Positions 3,695-39,277 of a stretch of DNA of 64,000 nucleotides are shown one piece after another; the first letter of the stretch is position 1; every line of letters starts with the position of its first letter. The position numbers and the translations under genes are program-made. The notes under the pieces are model-generated. The model had not been told where the DNA came from. It did no database searches and saw only the letters and a program-made list of their open reading frames with translations. The DNA is from a phage: NCBI GenBank assembly GCA_017686895.1, contig GCA_017686895.1_4521.1; one strand, written 5' to 3'.

Positions 3695-3875
3695 ACGTCT
3701 GAAGCTGAACGCAGGGTTCACCCTTAAATTGGGAGGTCCTCTTTGTGTTAAAATTTCTGAAAAGGAATATCACGACGGTTCTATTACAGAAATTTGTCCG
3801 CCTATTGTAAAGGCGGACCCAAAACAACTCGTGTGGGTCGATTCATTTCAAGTTAAGAAATGGTGGAAACGATGA
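3669..3875 (+). CDS. hypothetical protein
   Basis: ATG at 3669 with GAGGA SD; overlaps end of upstream ORF. Confidence 0.3.
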   Translation: MALVQTKFKRLKLNAGFTLKLGGPLCVKISEKEYHDGSITEICPPIVKADPKQLVWVDSFQVKKWWKR

Positions 3876-4157: not shown

Positions 4158-5177
4158 ATGAAAATTTTGCACTTAGGCGACTTCCATATCGGAGTCAAAC
4201 AAGACGACCCATGGGTTCAAGATATTCAACGTGATGGTATTCGACAAGCAATTGAATACTCTAAGAAACACGGGATTAAAACTTGGATTCAGTACGGTGA
4301 TTGGTTTGACGTCCGTAAAGCAATAACACATCGTACAATGGAATTCAATCGTGAAATCGTTGATATGATTTCTAAAGCAGGCATTCACGTTCATGTCACG
4401 ATAGGAAACCATGACATGGCGTTTAAGAATACAATAACACCTAACACTGTTTCTGAATTGTTAACTCAATTTGAAAACTTTACTATTTACGAGCATCCAA
4501 CTACTGTAGATTTTGACGGATGTCTGATTGATATCGTTCCATGGATGTGTGAAGAAAATACAGGTGAAATCTTAGAGCACATCAAGACTTCTTCTGCTGC
4601 GTATTGTGTTGGTCACTGGGAACTGAACGGCTTTTATTTCTATAAAGGAATGAAGTCCCATGGGCTTGAACCTGATTTCTTAAAGACTTATAAACAAGTC
4701 TGGTCCGGCCACTTCCACACAATCTCTGAAGCTGCTAACGTCAAATATATTGGGACACCATGGACCCTTACTGCAGGTGATGAGAATGATCCTCGCGGAT
4801 TCTGGGTATTTGACACTGACGTTGAACGTATGGAATTTATTCCTAATGAAACAACATGGCATCGACGAATCACTTATCCATTTAAAGGCAAAATCAATTA
4901 TTCTGATTATACTAATCTAGCCGTACGTGTTATAGTATCAGAAATTGATTCAGAGTTGACTAAGTTTGAATCTGAACTTGAAAAAGTAGTTCACTCTCTT
5001 CGTATGGTTTCTAAAGTTGATAACAGTGTTGAATCTGATGACGACCAGGAAATCGAGATTAAATCACTTCAAGATATCATTAAAGAATATATTGACGCGA
5101 TTCCAGATATCTCAGACGAAGACAGAGAAGCGCTGGTCAAATATTCCAACGAACTTTATATTGAGGCAACACAATGA
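4158..5177 (+). CDS. 47: recombination endonuclease subunit gp47 (Mre11-like)
   Basis: MKILHLGDFHIG phosphoesterase motif; high similarity to T4 gp47 along its length as recalled. Confidence 0.92.
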   Translation: MKILHLGDFHIGVKQDDPWVQDIQRDGIRQAIEYSKKHGIKTWIQYGDWFDVRKAITHRTMEFNREIVDMISKAGIHVHVTIGNHDMAFKNTITPNTVSELLTQFENFTIYEHPTTVDFDGCLIDIVPWMCEENTGEILEHIKTSSAAYCVGHWELNGFYFYKGMKSHGLEPDFLKTYKQVWSGHFHTISEAANVKYIGTPWTLTAGDENDPRGFWVFDTDVERMEFIPNETTWHRRITYPFKGKINYSDYTNLAVRVIVSEIDSELTKFESELEKVVHSLRMVSKVDNSVESDDDQEIEIKSLQDIIKEYIDAIPDISDEDREALVKYSNELYIEATQ

Positions 5178-5431
5178 CTTTAGATGAATTTAATAATGCT
5201 GGGCTCGGGCTTGAAGTTGAAATAGACGTTAAAGATGATGATGGATTCGAGAACACTATCAAGTATTGGATTGAGCCATTACGCGTTGAAGGCAATGAAG
5301 TTAAAGCAGTTCATGTCTGCACCGACTGGGCTATTGAATTTAGCTTTAATATAATGGACAACGATACTCCTGGCTCTATTCTTAAAATGGCTGAAGCGTG
5401 TATTGAGGATGCGTATAATGACGAAGACTGA
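5174..5431 (+). CDS. hypothetical protein
   Basis: 85-aa acidic ORF between 47 and 46. Confidence 0.4.
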   Translation: MTLDEFNNAGLGLEVEIDVKDDDGFENTIKYWIEPLRVEGNEVKAVHVCTDWAIEFSFNIMDNDTPGSILKMAEACIEDAYNDED

Positions 5432-33543: not shown

Positions 33544-33855
33544 ATGGTTTATGTATATGCAATAGTTTATCGAGATATGGAAGGATTTACTGTCCCGGTC
33601 CCACTTGATGAGCATCGTCCTGCAGTATTTTTTAGAAAGGATATTGCAGATAAAGTTTTCGATACTTTGAAAACACAGTATAAAACAGATTTAAAAACGG
33701 GAGTTCTAAGAATGGTCGAAACTCCGCGTAAGTTCTGGTTTAATAAGCTTGAAATGAAACACGTTAAACTAGATGCGGAGACGCAAAGATTGTATCAACG
33801 AATCCTGGACACAGGCCGTATTGTTAGTATTCCAATTGCAGGGACTTTACGATGA
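33544..33855 (+). CDS. hypothetical protein (dda.1 position)
   Basis: 103-aa ORF immediately upstream of dda. Confidence 0.4.
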   Translation: MVYVYAIVYRDMEGFTVPVPLDEHRPAVFFRKDIADKVFDTLKTQYKTDLKTGVLRMVETPRKFWFNKLEMKHVKLDAETQRLYQRILDTGRIVSIPIAGTLR

Positions 33856-35165
33856 CATTTGATGATTTGACTGAAGGCCAGAAAAACGCCTTCAACGTTG
33901 TTATGAAAGCTATTAAAGAAAAGAAACATCACGTAACTATTAATGGGCCTGCCGGTACAGGTAAAACAACCCTTACTAGATTCATCGTTGAAGCCCTTAT
34001 TTCTTCTGGAGAATCAGGTATTATTTTAGCAGCCCCTACACACGCTGCTAAAAAGGTTCTAAGCAAACTTGCAGGTCAAGAAGCATCGACTATTCATAGC
34101 ATTCTTAAAATCAACCCAACTACATACGAAGAAAACGTATTGTTTGAGCAGAAAAAGGTTCCCGACTTAGCCTTGTGTCGTGTACTGTTATTTGATGAAG
34201 CGTCAATGTGCGACCGTCCTCTGTTTAAAATAATGTTAGCTAGTATCCCTAAATGGTGTACAGTAATTGGAATTGGTGACAGATGCCAGATTCGACCGGT
34301 AGACCCAGGCGAATCCACTGCGTATCTAAGTCCTTTCTTCACTCACAAAGACTTCGTGCAATGCAACCTTACAGAAGTTAAACGTAGCAATGCGCCAATT
34401 ATTGATGTTGCGACTGATATTCGTAATGGCAAATGGATTTACGATAAAGTAGTTGATGGGCATGGTGTTCATGGATATACAGACCTTAAATCGTATATGA
34501 TGAACTATTTTAACGTCGTTAAAACTCCTGAAGACCTTTTCGAAAATCGAATGATGGCATTCACAAATAAGTCGGTGGACAAGTTAAATTCAATTATTCG
34601 CCGAAAACTTCTTGAAACAGAAAAACCATTTATTAAAGACGAAGTCATTGTTCTACAAGAGCCATTTACTAAGACATATAAGCTAGACGGTAAAAATATG
34701 ACCGAAATGCTTTTCAATAATGGGCAATTCGTTCGTATTCGAGATGCTGTAGAAACGTCTACATTCGTTAAAGCACGTGGTGTTTCAGGCGAATATATGA
34801 TACGATACTGGAATCTTACAGTAGAAACATATGGTGATGATGAAGAATACATCCGCGAAGATATAAAGGTTATTTCTTCTGAAGAAGAGCTTTATAAATT
34901 CAATTTGTTTTTGGCTAAGACCGCAGAAACATACAAATTTTGGAATAAAGGTGGTAAAGCTCCATGGAGCGAATTCTGGGATGCTAAACGTATGTTCACT
35001 AAGGTGAAGGCGCTACCAGTATCAACCTTCCATAAGGCCCAGGGTATGTCTGTTGACACAGCCTTTGTTTATACACCGTGTATCCATTATGCTGATTCAG
35101 AATTAGCTAAACAGTTGTTGTATGTCGGCACAACTCGTGGTCGTTTTGACGTCCATTTTATTTGA
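33852..35165 (+). CDS. dda: DNA helicase Dda (SF1B)
   Basis: MTFDDLTEGQKNAFNVVMKAIKEKKHHVTINGPAGTGKTT matches T4 Dda as recalled. Confidence 0.93.
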   Translation: MTFDDLTEGQKNAFNVVMKAIKEKKHHVTINGPAGTGKTTLTRFIVEALISSGESGIILAAPTHAAKKVLSKLAGQEASTIHSILKINPTTYEENVLFEQKKVPDLALCRVLLFDEASMCDRPLFKIMLASIPKWCTVIGIGDRCQIRPVDPGESTAYLSPFFTHKDFVQCNLTEVKRSNAPIIDVATDIRNGKWIYDKVVDGHGVHGYTDLKSYMMNYFNVVKTPEDLFENRMMAFTNKSVDKLNSIIRRKLLETEKPFIKDEVIVLQEPFTKTYKLDGKNMTEMLFNNGQFVRIRDAVETSTFVKARGVSGEYMIRYWNLTVETYGDDEEYIREDIKVISSEEELYKFNLFLAKTAETYKFWNKGGKAPWSEFWDAKRMFTKVKALPVSTFHKAQGMSVDTAFVYTPCIHYADSELAKQLLYVGTTRGRFDVHFI

Positions 35166-35174
35166 GAGAAAATT

Positions 35175-35852
35175 ATGAGCACTGATGTTATTATAGATTT
35201 TGAAACATTCGGCAATACATCAAAAGCGGCTGTTATTGACCTTGCGGTTATTGCATATAATTCAGACCCTGAAGTTGTTGAATCATTTGAAGAACTTGTT
35301 CAACGAGGTAAGCGAATTAAATTTAATTTAGCTTCTCAAAAAGGGAAGCGAGTTTTCGCTAAATCCACTATGAAATGGTGGAAAGAACAATCAGCAGAAG
35401 CACGTAAAAACCTGGCCCCATCTGAAGACGATGTCACTACGCTTGAAGGCATTAAAATCTTTTTAGATTATTGTCGAGCTAATAAAGTTGACCAATGGAA
35501 ATCACAGATGTGGTGCCGTGGTATGAGCTTTGACTTCCCGATATTGGTCGATTTGATTCGTGACCTCTATCGTGATGAAGGTGTTCTTGAACCAGATATT
35601 GATACCGATAAATTAGAACCTGTTAAATTCTGGGCTCAACGCGATATTCGTACGGCAATCGAAGCTTACTCGTTGACACGAGGATTAAGTATGTGTCCAT
35701 TACCGATGGGTACTCTAAAAGGATTCGTTGCCCATGATAGTATTCATGATTGTGCTAAAGATATTTTGATGTTAAAATATGCTCAGCGTTATGCGCTTGG
35801 TCTTGAAGATGTACCTGAGAATCCTGACCCGTTAAGTGTAAAACAGCGATAA
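35175..35852 (+). CDS. dexA: exonuclease A (DexA)-like protein
   Basis: 225 aa immediately downstream of dda as in T4; DFETFG N-terminal acidic motif. Confidence 0.6.
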   Translation: MSTDVIIDFETFGNTSKAAVIDLAVIAYNSDPEVVESFEELVQRGKRIKFNLASQKGKRVFAKSTMKWWKEQSAEARKNLAPSEDDVTTLEGIKIFLDYCRANKVDQWKSQMWCRGMSFDFPILVDLIRDLYRDEGVLEPDIDTDKLEPVKFWAQRDIRTAIEAYSLTRGLSMCPLPMGTLKGFVAHDSIHDCAKDILMLKYAQRYALGLEDVPENPDPLSVKQR

Positions 35853-35857
35853 AACCA

Positions 35858-35888
35858 GTTTACAACCAAGGATGGTTGGAGTATAATC
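35858..35888 (+). promoter_or_regulatory. early-promoter-like element
   Basis: GTTTAC -35, TATAAT -10. Confidence 0.45.
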
Positions 35889-35917
35889 TTTCTATCTTAA
35901 CCAAACAGGAAAACATT

Positions 35918-36412
35918 ATGAATATCAATACTACGGCTACTTACATCCTGAAAGATGAAAAACAAATCAACTGGTACGGTGCTTCAGTGCGAGCTTATGA
36001 AAAGTTTTGTGAAATTTTAGGTGCCACTCAAGGTAATAGTTTCACTATTGTTAACTTCATCAAACAAGTTGAAGGCCCTTGGTTATTCTTAGAAATTAAA
36101 AATTCATATGGTACAATTTCTACCACCGCCCTTCCAAGCACCGACTTTGAACTGTTGATTGAAGAAGTAGAACCCGTTAAAGATATCTGTATTGATATGG
36201 ATATCGCTTGTATGTACGGTACTCTGATTAAGCCTATTGAGCCTACTGATTTGTTGTGTAAATATGTTTCAATTCGACGCCCATTCGCTGGTCCAGTAAA
36301 TGGATGGGTGACTGATCAGTGGATTGAAGACGGTGTTGAACTTCTGAACGTTGTTCATGCAGGTGATTTTAGTGTAGTTCCACGTAGTGCTGTGGTTAAT
36401 ATCCTTAATTAA
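35918..36412 (+). CDS. hypothetical protein, paralog family member 1
   Basis: C-terminal GWVTDQWIEDGVELLNVVHAGDFSVVP shared with next two ORFs. Confidence 0.45.
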   Translation: MNINTTATYILKDEKQINWYGASVRAYEKFCEILGATQGNSFTIVNFIKQVEGPWLFLEIKNSYGTISTTALPSTDFELLIEEVEPVKDICIDMDIACMYGTLIKPIEPTDLLCKYVSIRRPFAGPVNGWVTDQWIEDGVELLNVVHAGDFSVVPRSAVVNILN

Positions 36413-36473
36413 TGTTGTACATCCAAGGACGGGTGGAGTATAATGAATTCAACTTAAACAAAGAGAGAAAATT

Positions 36474-36959
36474 ATGAATCTTGGTATTATTGGTGAAATC
36501 GTTCGCGTATCTAACAAATCTCGTTCTAAAGCAGCAGGAAAATTGGTCGAAGTTGTAAGTATTCAACTTAAAGAAGGCGTTAAAGATGAAGATTCTGAGG
36601 TAAAAGTTCGTATTATTCCTAGTCTTGGGTCGAGGGAAACTCAGTTCGCTTATGTTCGTGCAAAGTTCTTGGAAACTCCTGCGAGTAGTGCTTTTGCTTC
36701 AAGAGAAAAAGTTGAATCCACAGAGCCTAATGTACAGTTCAAATGGGCCTTGTGTAAAGGTGTTGAATTCCAGACTGATAAAGAATTTGACTTCATCGAT
36801 GAATATGGTTATCCAAGCACAACTGATACCATGTGTGGCTTCATTAGTGACCAATGGGTAGAAGATGGTGAAAAGTTATACAATATCGTATTCTTAGGTG
36901 ACTTCCGAGTTGTTAAAGAATCCGAAATCACTCGCTATGTGTCTCCTCGTAAAGCTTAA
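36474..36959 (+). CDS. hypothetical protein, paralog family member 2
   Basis: SRSKAAGKLVEVVS and GFISDQWVEDGEKLYNIVFLGDFRVV shared with neighbours. Confidence 0.5.
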   Translation: MNLGIIGEIVRVSNKSRSKAAGKLVEVVSIQLKEGVKDEDSEVKVRIIPSLGSRETQFAYVRAKFLETPASSAFASREKVESTEPNVQFKWALCKGVEFQTDKEFDFIDEYGYPSTTDTMCGFISDQWVEDGEKLYNIVFLGDFRVVKESEITRYVSPRKA

Positions 36960-36968
36960 GGAATTATT

Positions 36969-37388
36969 ATGAATATTGTAAATCTCTCTACAGGTGATTA
37001 CGTATATGTATCTGTTGCTTCTCGCTCTAAAGTTGCCGGGAAGTTGGTTGAAGTTCTTTCTGTGAGTGATCCGGTTTTTGGTCGTAACCAAGTTAAAGTT
37101 CGTGATGCTAATGGTAATATTGGCTACGTCTCAAGCCAGTTCATTGAGCCAGAAGAAAAAGCGTTCAAATGGGGACTATGCAGATCAGTTTCTGTTGAAA
37201 AAGACCATGAATTCACTATTGCTGCGGCAACTGATGGAACGCCATGGAAAACTAAGCAAATCGCCGGATTTATTAGCGACCGTTGGGTAGAAGATGGTGT
37301 TAAGCTTTATAACATCGTTTTCGCTGGTCAGTTCATGGTAGTTCCTGAATTCCAAATTAAAAAATATAGCCCAGCTGCTTTCGCATAA
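36969..37388 (+). CDS. hypothetical protein, paralog family member 3
   Basis: SRSKVAGKLVEVLS and GFISDRWVEDGVKLYNIVFAGQFMVV shared with neighbours. Confidence 0.5.
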   Translation: MNIVNLSTGDYVYVSVASRSKVAGKLVEVLSVSDPVFGRNQVKVRDANGNIGYVSSQFIEPEEKAFKWGLCRSVSVEKDHEFTIAAATDGTPWKTKQIAGFISDRWVEDGVKLYNIVFAGQFMVVPEFQIKKYSPAAFA

Positions 37389-37392
37389 AGTT

Positions 37393-37442
37393 GTTTACTT
37401 CTCCTCTGGTTTTGATATTATAACCATATCAACCAGAGGAGA
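37393..37442 (+). promoter_or_regulatory. early-promoter/stem-loop cassette (PeSL-like)
   Basis: gtttacttctcctctggtt..TATTAT..aaccagaggagaa; 11-12-bp arms flank -10; related to cassette at 24470. Confidence 0.5.
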
Positions 37443-37447
37443 ATAAT

Positions 37448-37972
37448 ATGTTAGTTTACCGCGTAGAACGTAGTTTTTGCACTCAACGTGAATCATTACC
37501 AGGAATTGCTATCGAAGACGGTAAAGCCGTCAGAATTTGGGAAACCTCTTGGAATAAAGAACCTCGTTCGCCATACGGTTGGTCGGGCACCGACAACTCT
37601 GAAGAAACATGGGAGTTCCTTGATAAGCATGGAATACTCTCAGGTAACTTCTACCATCACGGCGACAACTATAATGTCCCTAATCGTCCTACAGTAAATG
37701 AAGACAAACTTCTTGAACAAAATATCTTAAGATACCATAGAATTGAGTACACATTTGAATTGAGTGAAGATTGGGCTCAAGGGTTCTATTTTGGATTTGA
37801 AAGCGTTGACGCGGTTTATGCATGGTTTGATGACCAGGTGGATGTTGAACTCTTGAAAGCTAAAGGATACTACATCGCGGTCTATGAAGCACCTGATTTC
37901 ATCCTCGGAAGTTGTCAATTAATGTTTAGACGTTCATTGGCAGAACAAGTTGATTTTATTTTGCTAAAATGA
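37448..37972 (+). CDS. hypothetical protein
   Basis: 174-aa ORF after promoter/stem-loop cassette. Confidence 0.45.
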   Translation: MLVYRVERSFCTQRESLPGIAIEDGKAVRIWETSWNKEPRSPYGWSGTDNSEETWEFLDKHGILSGNFYHHGDNYNVPNRPTVNEDKLLEQNILRYHRIEYTFELSEDWAQGFYFGFESVDAVYAWFDDQVDVELLKAKGYYIAVYEAPDFILGSCQLMFRRSLAEQVDFILLK

Positions 37973-38029: not shown

Positions 38030-38257
38030 ATGAAACGTCAAATCATTAAAAACGTAACTACTGATTCAAACATCGATGAGTTTGAAGATGTTCTGTTTAA
38101 TCCTGATTTAGTTGTTGTACAGAAAAACTGGACCAGATTTTTATGCTACACCGAAGTGGTTTACGTTTACGAAAAACTCGGCGATGAAATGCCTATCTAC
38201 GGTATCTTCCGTGAAATCACTGAAAACGGTACAACTTATTGGAAGGAAACTTACTAA
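38030..38257 (+). CDS. hypothetical protein
   Basis: ATG at 38030 after GAGGAG SD. Confidence 0.35.
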
Positions 38258-38667
38258 TGGCTAATAAATTCCGCGTTAACTCGTGGTACCAATTTAAAGA
38301 TAAACGTGCCCAAGAAGAGTTTATTAAAAACCACACTGATAATGGGATTTATGCACGACGTCTTGGCATGGAACCATTTAAAGTATTAGATGTTGACCAT
38401 CTTGGTCGTCCTACTAAAATTGTGACATCTACTGGCACGGTTGGATACGCAACAGGCGGTGATATCCTTGATGAAAACTTTATCTGGCTCTCCACGAATG
38501 AAGCAGAATTCTTTGACGAAGTTGGAAATCCGTATCAAGCGTCCGAAGAGCAAGATTCTGGTGAACTTGACGAATTGTCTGAATTTCCGGTGATGACAAT
38601 TACTATCGAAAATAACGACCAGGCATGGTCTTTGTATCAAATGTTGAAAGCACATTTTAAGGAATAA
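38257..38667 (+). CDS. hypothetical acidic protein
   Basis: 137-aa ORF, ATGA-type overlap. Confidence 0.4.
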
Positions 38668-38851: not shown

Positions 38852-39277
38852 ATGGCTTTTAAAGGTTTTGAAGTTGGTAAGAAATATCGTATTATCAAAG
38901 GTCAAGAAGATAATTTCTTGAGAATTCTTAATACGACCGGTAAACGTCTTAATACTAATCTGCATACTACTTTATTGTCCAAAGATTTTATTGTGGAAGA
39001 GATGATTGGTTACGGTGTTTCGGTTATTGCTGTAGAAGCCGTAGGCGATTATGGTCGAACTATTCATAGTATGCAAGGTGATATTCTGCTTTATGGTGCA
39101 GAATTTAAATTCTTTGAAGAAGTTCCGGAACCAGATACATCTGTCGATTTCAAAAAAGGCTCTATAGAATTTGTTGATGGATCGGTGATCGTATCAGGCG
39201 ATGTGGTCATTACAGTTAAAAGTGAACAAGGGCGTTTGGCTGTAATTGATGCACTTCAGAAAATTAAATTTAAATAA
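38852..39277 (+). CDS. hypothetical protein
   Basis: 141-aa ORF ending at terminator hairpin. Confidence 0.45.
   Translation: MAFKGFEVGKKYRIIKGQEDNFLRILNTTGKRLNTNLHTTLLSKDFIVEEMIGYGVSVIAVEAVGDYGRTIHSMQGDILLYGAEFKFFEEVPEPDTSVDFKKGSIEFVDGSVIVSGDVVITVKSEQGRLAVIDALQKIKFK

Follow-up and report, generated by a model that had tools for sequence, protein, structure and literature searches.

Gene content of the locus

The window analyzed here is a stretch of 64,000 nucleotides of phage DNA (GenBank assembly GCA_017686895.1, contig GCA_017686895.1_4521.1), in which three consecutive open reading frames (ORF1 to ORF3) are located downstream of the exonuclease gene dexA. A preliminary description of this DNA had presented them as a tandem triplet of paralogous genes coding for proteins of 164, 161, and 139 amino acids, and with respect to coordinates, lengths, and motifs it was exact; all three genes are on the plus strand. 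The three genes and their immediate neighbors are as follows.

35175..35852, plus strand: dexA (3'-5' exonuclease A), upstream neighbor and synteny anchor
35918..36412, plus strand: ORF1, motB.1 orthologue, 164 residues, intact (PHROG 2333 at 1.7e-82)
36474..36959, plus strand: ORF2, motB orthologue, 161 residues (PHROG 1671 at 4.7e-69)
36969..37388, plus strand: ORF3, second, short motB copy of the RB69 ORF010c type, 139 residues (PHROG 1671 at 6.6e-51)
37448..37972, plus strand: ORF4, motB.2 orthologue, 174 residues (PHROG 1106 at 1.9e-45), downstream boundary of the cluster

Very probably, the triplet represents the MotB-family early cluster of a T4-like phage (Mosigvirus), in which ORF1 is motB.1, ORF2 is motB, and ORF3 is an additional motB copy of reduced length. 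MotB homologues form groups that agree in the C-terminal domain and differ in the N-terminal one; T4 MotB.1 belongs to the proteins with this C-terminal domain and likely originated by duplication, and phage RB69 possesses two motB copies and one motB.1 (Patterson-West et al. 2021, PMC7827196). Since both the shared C-terminal domain with differing heads and the RB69 gene set have thus been published, the triplet is already described and the finding is not new. What had been called an unknown family is the MotB/MotB.1 family of T4-like phages (Pfam PF17613, PHROG 1671 and 2333), which has been characterized experimentally in T4; the observation was correct, the discovery an ordinary one.

The paralogy of the three proteins was borne out by BLASTP. 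ORF2 and ORF3 align over about 150 residues with 41% identity (E = 1e-28), and ORF1 aligns with ORF2 (3e-10) and ORF3 (2e-10) in its C-terminal 29-36 residues only. All three proteins exceed the gathering score of 25 bits of PF17613 (motB, modifier of transcription): ORF2 reaches 182.4 bits over its full length (7.5e-54), ORF3 75.6 bits (5.3e-21), and ORF1 35.1 bits (1.5e-8) in its C-terminal half only, the match spanning residues 84-159. In the PHROG classification, ORF2 and ORF3 fall into phrog_1671 (MotB-like) and ORF1 into phrog_2333. The C-terminal block noted earlier is present in all three proteins (GWVTDQWIEDGVELLNVVHAGDFSVV, GFISDQWVEDGEKLYNIVFLGDFRVV, and GFISDRWVEDGVKLYNIVFAGQFMVV), and the N-terminal motif SRSK(A/V)AGKLVEV is present in ORF2 and ORF3 (SRSKAAGKLVEV and SRSKVAGKLVEV). 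The homology reaches further than this block, as an upstream L-C-(K/R)-x-V strand aligns too, which in MotB-type proteins is separated from the C-terminal core by an insertion of 13-14 residues. The core itself, G-[WFY]-[VI]-[TS]-D-[QR]-W-[IV]-E-D-G-x-x-L-x-N-[VI]-V, was found in all three ORFs, and in an alignment of 34 family members no variation occurs in its columns D, W, E, G, L, N, and V. A tblastn search of the whole window with each protein yielded no further copies of the C-terminal block beyond ORF1 to ORF3. When 1.84 billion representative proteins were searched with a hidden Markov model of the C-terminal domain only, in order to trace this domain beyond T4-like phages, just 29 clusters matched, so that the MotB family appears narrow and phage-specific. 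Three of these 29 matches (P0275-P0277) are long repetitive proteins covering only 24-29 profile positions and were taken as spurious.

The genus assignment follows from comparison of the region 35175-37972 with phage genomes. Megablast returned 633 matching phage records, and at least 80% of the region was covered in about 139 phage genomes. The top match, Escherichia phage vB-Eco-KMB38 (Mosigvirus), is 99.1% identical over 100% of the query, which identifies the window as DNA of a T4-like phage belonging, like RB69, to Mosigvirus. The anchor gene dexA matches Pfam PF16473 (Rv2179c-like exonuclease; 4e-20) and PHROG 255 (exonuclease; 1e-81) and occupies the same position as dexA of T4 and RB69. 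The placement of the cluster between dexA and cef/gene 39 was confirmed by synteny with T4, RB69, and ten other phages. The order dexA, motB.1, motB, motB-like, motB.2, cef is shared by RB69, APCEc01, AV112, Shf125875, ESh15, and CAU_ECP01; the order in T4 is dexA, motB.2, motB.1, motB, cef.

Domain architecture of the three proteins

Sequence comparison and structure prediction with AlphaFold2 led to the following domain boundaries (pLDDT, predicted local distance difference test; pI, isoelectric point; nt, nucleotides of the window).

ORF1, residues 1-85: predicted LSm-like N-terminal barrel
ORF1, residues 86-106: disordered linker, AlphaFold2 pLDDT below 50
ORF1, residues 93-107, nt 36194-36238: motif DMDIACMYGTLIKPI
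ORF1, residues 108-164, nt 36239-36409: MotB-type C-terminal barrel
ORF2, residues 1-66: KOW-like N-terminal barrel, basic, pI 9.8
ORF2, between N-terminal and C-terminal barrel: acidic linker
ORF2, residues 88-161, nt 36735-36956: C-terminal barrel, pI 4.5
ORF3, residues 1-60: KOW-like head
ORF3, residues 65-139, nt 37161-37385: C-terminal barrel

According to the models, all three proteins would end in the same small five-stranded β-barrel of about 55-75 residues, marked by the invariant pattern D..W.EDG..L.N.V. The domains of the MotB family resemble PHF19 Tudor, MRG15 chromo, and PWWP domains as well as the KOW domains of SPT5 and NusG, and in view of this resemblance all MotB-family domains encoded here are regarded as small SH3-like barrels. 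An OB fold is a five-stranded barrel that usually has a helix between strands 3 and 4. The C-terminal domain of MotB has been labeled as such a fold by a published HHpred assignment; the models obtained here feature five strands without the usual helix, and OB-type neighbors (eIF5A, EF-P) rank lower. A sequence search of the Protein Data Bank with ORF1 and ORF2 gave no meaningful matches (E ≥ 0.05), and the family has no solved structure.

The ORF1 model, calculated from an alignment of 34 sequences, has a pLDDT of 79.6 and comprises two folded domains, residues 1-83 and 116-163. The N-terminal one consists of strands 8-11, 42-49, 55-61, 67-73, and 80-83 and a helix formed by residues 26-37. 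Proteins of the LSm-like fold family possess an N-terminal bent five-stranded antiparallel sheet resembling Hfq or FeoA. The N-terminal domain of MotB.1 has been placed in this family together with GoF and Frd.2, and both monomers and dimers were reported for MotB.1 (Kim et al. 2025, PMC12152347). Compared with T4-type MotB.1 proteins (143-145 residues), ORF1 is 46-48% identical over the full length, the value for intact T4 MotB.1 being 46% over residues 3-164, and intact orthologues of ORF1 are present in 309 phage records. The subfamily to which ORF1 belongs, MotB.1, corresponds to "Category 2" of Patterson-West et al. 2021. The motif in the linker is conserved with the consensus D-[MF]-D-[IV]-A-[CS]-M-Y-G-T-L-I-K-P-[IL]. 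Elsewhere among MotB.1-type proteins, a motif of the DMDIACMYGTLIKPI type is located at the N terminus, separates two LSm-like domains, or links a KOW head to the C-terminal domain; this peptide may serve to bind a partner.

ORF2 has the two-domain architecture of MotB proper, a KOW-like N-terminal barrel followed by the C-terminal barrel, and is 58.6% identical to T4 MotB. ORF3 lacks about 26 residues of linker; its model, based on 43 sequences, displays two β-barrels with a pLDDT of 87.1 and a predicted template modeling score of 0.74, and like that of ORF1 it is a confident one. RB69p010 and RB3_010 share 95% and 89% identity, respectively, with ORF3. Of the 761 phage records having any MotB match, about 208 contain orthologues with at least 80% identity, so this short second copy is carried by about 200 sequenced phages.

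The domains differ in charge. In MotB-type proteins, the KOW heads (first 60 residues) have a median pI of 10.1-10.5 (9.8 in ORF2), and the shared C-terminal domain (last 70 residues) is acidic in every subfamily, with median pI values of 4.1-5.2. In MotB.1-type proteins, the entire chain is acidic (pI about 4.7), and the head of ORF3-type proteins is near neutral (median pI 6.5). A charge split between the two copies in two-copy phages, with an acidic C-terminal domain in motB and a basic one in the extra copy, was suggested by the window but discarded, as this domain proved acidic in all groups of the family-wide survey.

Promoters and expression signals

The following signals were located in the cluster.

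35859..35887, plus strand: ORF1 promoter-like site of the sigma-70/T4 early type, TTTACA-17-TATAAT, 11/12 consensus matches
36416..36444, plus strand: ORF2 promoter-like site, TGTACA-17-TATAAT, 10/12 consensus matches
37394-37421, plus strand: promoter-like site TTTACT-16-TATTAT, 9/12 matches, with TG
37399-37443, plus strand: hairpin between ORF3 and ORF4, -23.9 kcal/mol, z = -5.1

A promoter-like element of its own had been ascribed to each of the three genes, which holds for ORF1 and ORF2; upstream of ORF3, no such site was found. The sites of ORF1 and ORF2 have in common a 26-nt core, ACAnCCAAGGAnGGnTGGAGTATAAT (35862-35887 and 36419-36444), with 23 of the 26 positions identical, which suggests that the promoters are paralogous as well. 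In the 64 kb, this core is restricted to these two sites, with 0 matches expected by chance. ORF3, preceded by the Shine-Dalgarno sequence AAGGA, begins 9 nt past the stop codon of ORF2, and in each of the 15 sampled loci with a second motB copy (motB'), this copy follows motB after a gap of 9-12 nt. Because it lacks a promoter and follows ORF2 so closely, ORF3 is presumably read from the ORF2 transcript; terminator-like sites on the plus strand were not found inside the cluster. A TTG codon at 35876, which would extend ORF1 to 178 residues, was rejected as the start, since the promoter, with its -10 hexamer reaching to 35887, encompasses this codon and the orthologues are annotated with 164 residues.

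Immediately 5' of the -10 hexamer, both promoters contain GGAG, the motif of the nuclease RegB, which in this position would occur in read-through RNA only. The motB mRNA of T4 is a classic RegB substrate (PMC1702504), and there the GGAG site is located in the mRNA leader, whereas in the window it lies just upstream of the -10 hexamer.

The hairpin at 37399-37443 overlaps the third promoter-like site, and its 3' arm contains the GAGGAG Shine-Dalgarno sequence of ORF4. As judged from this arrangement, transcripts reading through from upstream would mask the ribosome-binding site of ORF4, whereas those begun inside the hairpin would not. In T4, motB.2 is preceded by a similar hairpin element, though the upstream gene there is dexA; motB.2 therefore seems to travel with its own control region.

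Organization of the cluster in related phages

The window is AT-rich, with about 37% GC, and its genes are largely on the plus strand. Between 32.8 and 41.2 kb, the gene order is srd, dda.1, dda, dexA, ORF1, ORF2, ORF3, ORF4, cef, goF, 39.2, a 141-residue ORF, and gene 39, the positions of the neighbors referred to below being as follows.

33852-35165: dda
38239-38667: goF (phrog_622)
38852-39277: 141-residue goF-like paralogue of the RB69p005 type (phrog_622)

Three proteins with a putative LSm-like head are thus encoded within 3.5 kb, namely, ORF1, goF, and the 141-residue goF-like ORF, the last of which also weakly matches the PHROG of ORF1 (E = 0.0012). ORF4 (motB.2), despite its name, is unrelated to MotB in sequence and has no match to the Pfam motB profile; it is 33-35% identical to MotB.2 of T4, RB3, RB68, and Sf24.

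For comparison, the locus was retrieved from 15 related phages represented in GenBank; these records were used because a scan of IMG/VR with ORF2 provided only 3 loci, too few for a population analysis. The 15 phages display four layouts.

Mosigvirus: dexA, motB.1, motB, motB', motB.2, cef
Tequatrovirus RB3, Sf24, and RB68: dexA, motB.2, motB.1, motB, motB', 89-residue ORF, cef
T4: motB' absent
Mosigvirus PNJ-9: only motB and motB', with motB.1 and motB.2 absent

The position of motB.2 depends on the genus: in Tequatrovirus it precedes motB.1, and in Mosigvirus it follows the second copy of motB. The cluster has been rearranged in units of single genes, each apparently carried along with its promoter. 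Beyond these phages, a Foldseek search of viral models detected MotB-like proteins in other T4-like phages, including phages of Klebsiella, Yersinia, Citrobacter, and Serratia.

Two of the genes are interrupted in individual genomes. In KMB38, the closest relative, a stop codon occurs at ORF3 codon 93, where the window encodes Trp93 (37245-37247; KMB38 locus 4295-4711 corresponds to window positions 36969-37385), and the second motB copy of this phage is annotated with 92 residues, without the conserved core. This stop reflects a null allele that occurs naturally or else an error in sequencing.

The second case concerns motB.1 in the reference genomes. In the T4 RefSeq entry NC_000866.4, motB.1 reads CAATGGATTGGAAGATGG and specifies a 119-residue protein ending in WIGRWR, owing to an extra G, with ATTGGAAGATGG in place of the ATTGAAGATGG of other genomes (NC_000866 position about 7303; retrieved locus around 3800-3830, minus strand; ORF1 codons 136-137 in the window, about 36323-36328). 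The T4 genomes OZ209023, HM137666, KJ477684, and KJ477685 have a single G and encode a 143-residue MotB.1 ending in the full core EDGVELLNVVHAGEYSVVPRSAVVAILN; a 143-residue protein of identical length and organization is found on 256 contigs (P0011). The 119-residue form is without most of the conserved C-terminal core and has a calculated mass of 13.8 kDa, the same mass that Kim et al. 2025 give for MotB.1, citing NC_000866.4 (PMC12152347). The length of the MotB.1 construct in recent work therefore merits checking. In RB69, tblastn with ORF1 resolves motB.1 into three frame-shifted segments, corresponding to residues 1-123, 123-139, and 140-164 (RefSeq retrieved locus 4880-5373, minus strand). 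Going by these segments, the isolated 29-residue ORF RB69p012, listed as "Category 3" (Patterson-West et al. 2021), is the displaced C-terminal core of the frameshifted motB.1, by which the occurrence of such a peptide would be explained.

Selection and divergence

Pairwise ratios of nonsynonymous to synonymous substitution rates (dN/dS) were calculated by the Nei-Gojobori method for 11-15 related phages, both for genes and for domains. The medians were 0.013 for dda, 0.044 for dexA, 0.13 for ORF1, 0.25 for ORF2, 0.15 for ORF3, 0.11 for ORF4, 0.06 for cef, and 0.145 for goF, and no pair exceeded 0.5. Domain-wise values ranged from 0.11 to 0.42 and those of the C-terminal domains from 0.11 to 0.21, this domain being the most constrained part in ORF1 (0.11) and ORF2 (0.19). 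ORF1 to ORF3 are under purifying selection, and the diversifying selection inferred in the preliminary description was rejected at the gene and the domain level, with the proviso that pairwise dN/dS values are averages in which a few positively selected sites could remain hidden.

These values also bear on the possibility that ORF3, ORF1, or both are redundant duplicates drifting to loss, with motB (ORF2) as the sole functional copy. Such a decay would account for the stop codon in ORF3 of KMB38, the two frameshifts breaking motB.1 in the RB69 RefSeq genome, and the absence of motB.1 from PNJ-9 and of ORF3 from T4, and it would agree with the reports that burst size and latent period are unchanged on deletion of T4 motB.1 (PMC12152347) and that T4 tolerates the loss of its motB region (PMC1702504). 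We nevertheless consider it unlikely: the purifying dN/dS values of ORF1 and ORF3 are similar to those of goF and motB.2, an intact ORF3 of unvarying length was found in 14 of the 15 loci sampled and in about 30 clusters of proteins, ORF1 has its 309 records of intact orthologues, and the truncation of T4 motB.1 is absent from the four other T4 genomes checked and hence not general in T4.

ORF2 is the most divergent gene of the region, with 70-97% amino acid identity among Mosigvirus phages, compared with 99-100% for dexA and 96-100% for the flanking genes dexA, dda, and cef taken together. Its divergence might be read as the trace of an arms race, i.e., of an expansion under diversifying selection in which the variants counter different host defense or silencing factors; its dN/dS is the highest of the region (0.25-0.34), the locus is plastic, with ORF3 missing from T4, motB.1 and motB.2 missing from PNJ-9, and motB.2 on different sides of the cluster depending on the genus, and H-NS, on which T4 MotB acts, is a xenogeneic silencer (PMC7827196). 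However, apart from the low dN/dS values given above, the divergence of ORF2 resides in two discrete types of N-terminal allele among the Mosigvirus motB genes (36474-36671 in the window) and is accompanied by an equally high synonymous divergence of 0.42. The allele of the window, IQLKEGVKDEDSEVKVRIIP, is nearly identical to T4 MotB, whereas RB69-type phages have LRTNGTGRVKEVKVRIIP; in addition, the linker varies by insertions and deletions, including a duplicated FASSEEVAPAHFASSDIV in PNJ-9. Taken together, the discrete alleles, the high synonymous divergence, and the linker variation point to mosaic recombination rather than positive selection, and the allele pattern indicates a probable mosaic exchange between genera. 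ORF3, for its part, is 88-99% conserved and always 139 residues long. An arms-race expansion thus appears quite improbable.

Proposed function of the cluster

In T4, MotB is made early and in abundance and is toxic in E. coli. It binds double-stranded DNA, modified or unmodified, irrespective of sequence, is co-purified with H-NS and StpA by way of the DNA, remodels the H-NS footprint, up-regulates 75 host genes, one third of which are H-NS repressed, and doubles the burst size (PMC6070864, PMC7827196). As T4 MotB is a host-takeover protein altering H-NS binding, the role in host interaction that had been suggested for the triplet is a reasonable one.

For the MotB cluster of the window, we propose the following course of events. 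Immediately after infection, the host sigma-70 RNA polymerase would transcribe the genes from the two paralogous early promoters, and ORF3 would be read off the ORF2 transcript, possibly with its translation coupled to that of ORF2. By analogy with T4 MotB, the ORF2 product would be made abundantly, bind double-stranded DNA without sequence specificity, and shift the seating of H-NS on the DNA, whereby H-NS-silenced genes would be de-repressed and the burst size roughly doubled. DNA binding and the effect on H-NS are assigned to ORF2 by virtue of its orthology with T4 MotB, and its basic N-terminal domain (pI 9.8) is compatible with the nonspecific DNA binding, toxicity, and altered H-NS footprint described for the T4 protein. 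The contrast between basic KOW heads and acidic C-terminal domains favors DNA binding by the strongly basic KOW head and a different, common role for the acidic barrel; on the simplest reading, the latter would serve as a module for protein-protein contact or assembly. ORF3, with its neutral head, and ORF1, an acidic protein with an LSm-like head, would then be accessory variants built on this common C-terminal module.

Several points weigh against this scheme. ORF2 is just 58.6% identical to T4 MotB and acidic overall, so that its affinity for DNA could differ; the division into an N-terminal DNA-binding and a C-terminal protein-binding part is deduced from charge, and in the published view either domain of MotB could bind DNA. 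The experimental findings drawn on here come from T4. As for ORF1, its function is putative, given that deletion of T4 motB.1 is without a laboratory phenotype and that MotB.1 had a small effect in an RNA reporter assay (PMC12152347).

An extension of this scheme, put forward tentatively and with considerable doubt, is that the acidic C-terminal barrel, rather than binding DNA itself, joins the three putative nucleic-acid-binding heads (basic KOW, near-neutral KOW, and LSm-like) in a single complex on the chromatin of host or phage, the cluster thereby forming a modular system rather than a set of redundant copies. In a variant of this model, the paralogues may divide unmodified host DNA, glucosyl-hydroxymethylcytosine phage DNA, and RNA among themselves. 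That the family acts mainly on RNA instead of DNA is hard to credit: KOW, LSm, and Tudor-like barrels typically bind RNA or ribonucleoproteins, MotB.1 has an LSm-like N-terminal domain and GoF(D25Y) stabilizes an mRNA (PMC12152347), and the cluster adjoins goF and cef, with their effects on mRNA and tRNA, and the second goF-like ORF at 38852-39277 would fit as well, but T4 MotB binds double-stranded DNA tightly and co-purifies with DNA and H-NS, the T4 transcriptome is barely altered by motB knockdown (PMC6070864), and MotB.1 has little effect on the RNA reporter (PMC12152347).

Comparison with known systems

The closest counterpart of ORF2 is T4 MotB, which has the same KOW-like head with SRSKAAGKLVEV, the same C-terminal core, the same location in the dexA-to-cef region, and the same early type of promoter; the two differ in overall charge, ORF2 having a pI of 5.2, due to its acidic C-terminal domain, and T4 MotB a pI of 9.2. 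T4 MotB.1 agrees with ORF1 in the LSm-like head and the C-terminal core, whereas ORF1 contains about 20 extra linker residues bearing DMDIACMYGTLIKPI, a motif absent from T4, and directly follows dexA, from which T4 motB.1 is separated by motB.2. ORF3 belongs to the same group as RB69 ORF010c and RB3_010, the "MotB-like protein" of 139 residues that published work lists as an additional copy of motB.

With respect to wider families, the similarity of the MotB-family barrels to the KOW domains of NusG/Spt5 and to Tudor, chromo, and PWWP domains is one of fold and not of membership, the identity being 5-20% and the Pfam KOW profile giving no match at an E value below 1. Functionally, MotB is comparable to T7 gp5.5 and T4 Arn, to which it has no relationship in sequence or fold: for gp5.5 and Arn, the H-NS protein is itself the binding partner, whereas MotB meets H-NS only through DNA (PMC7827196), yet the proposed outcome is the same for all of them, namely, that H-NS silencing is relieved or altered early in infection.

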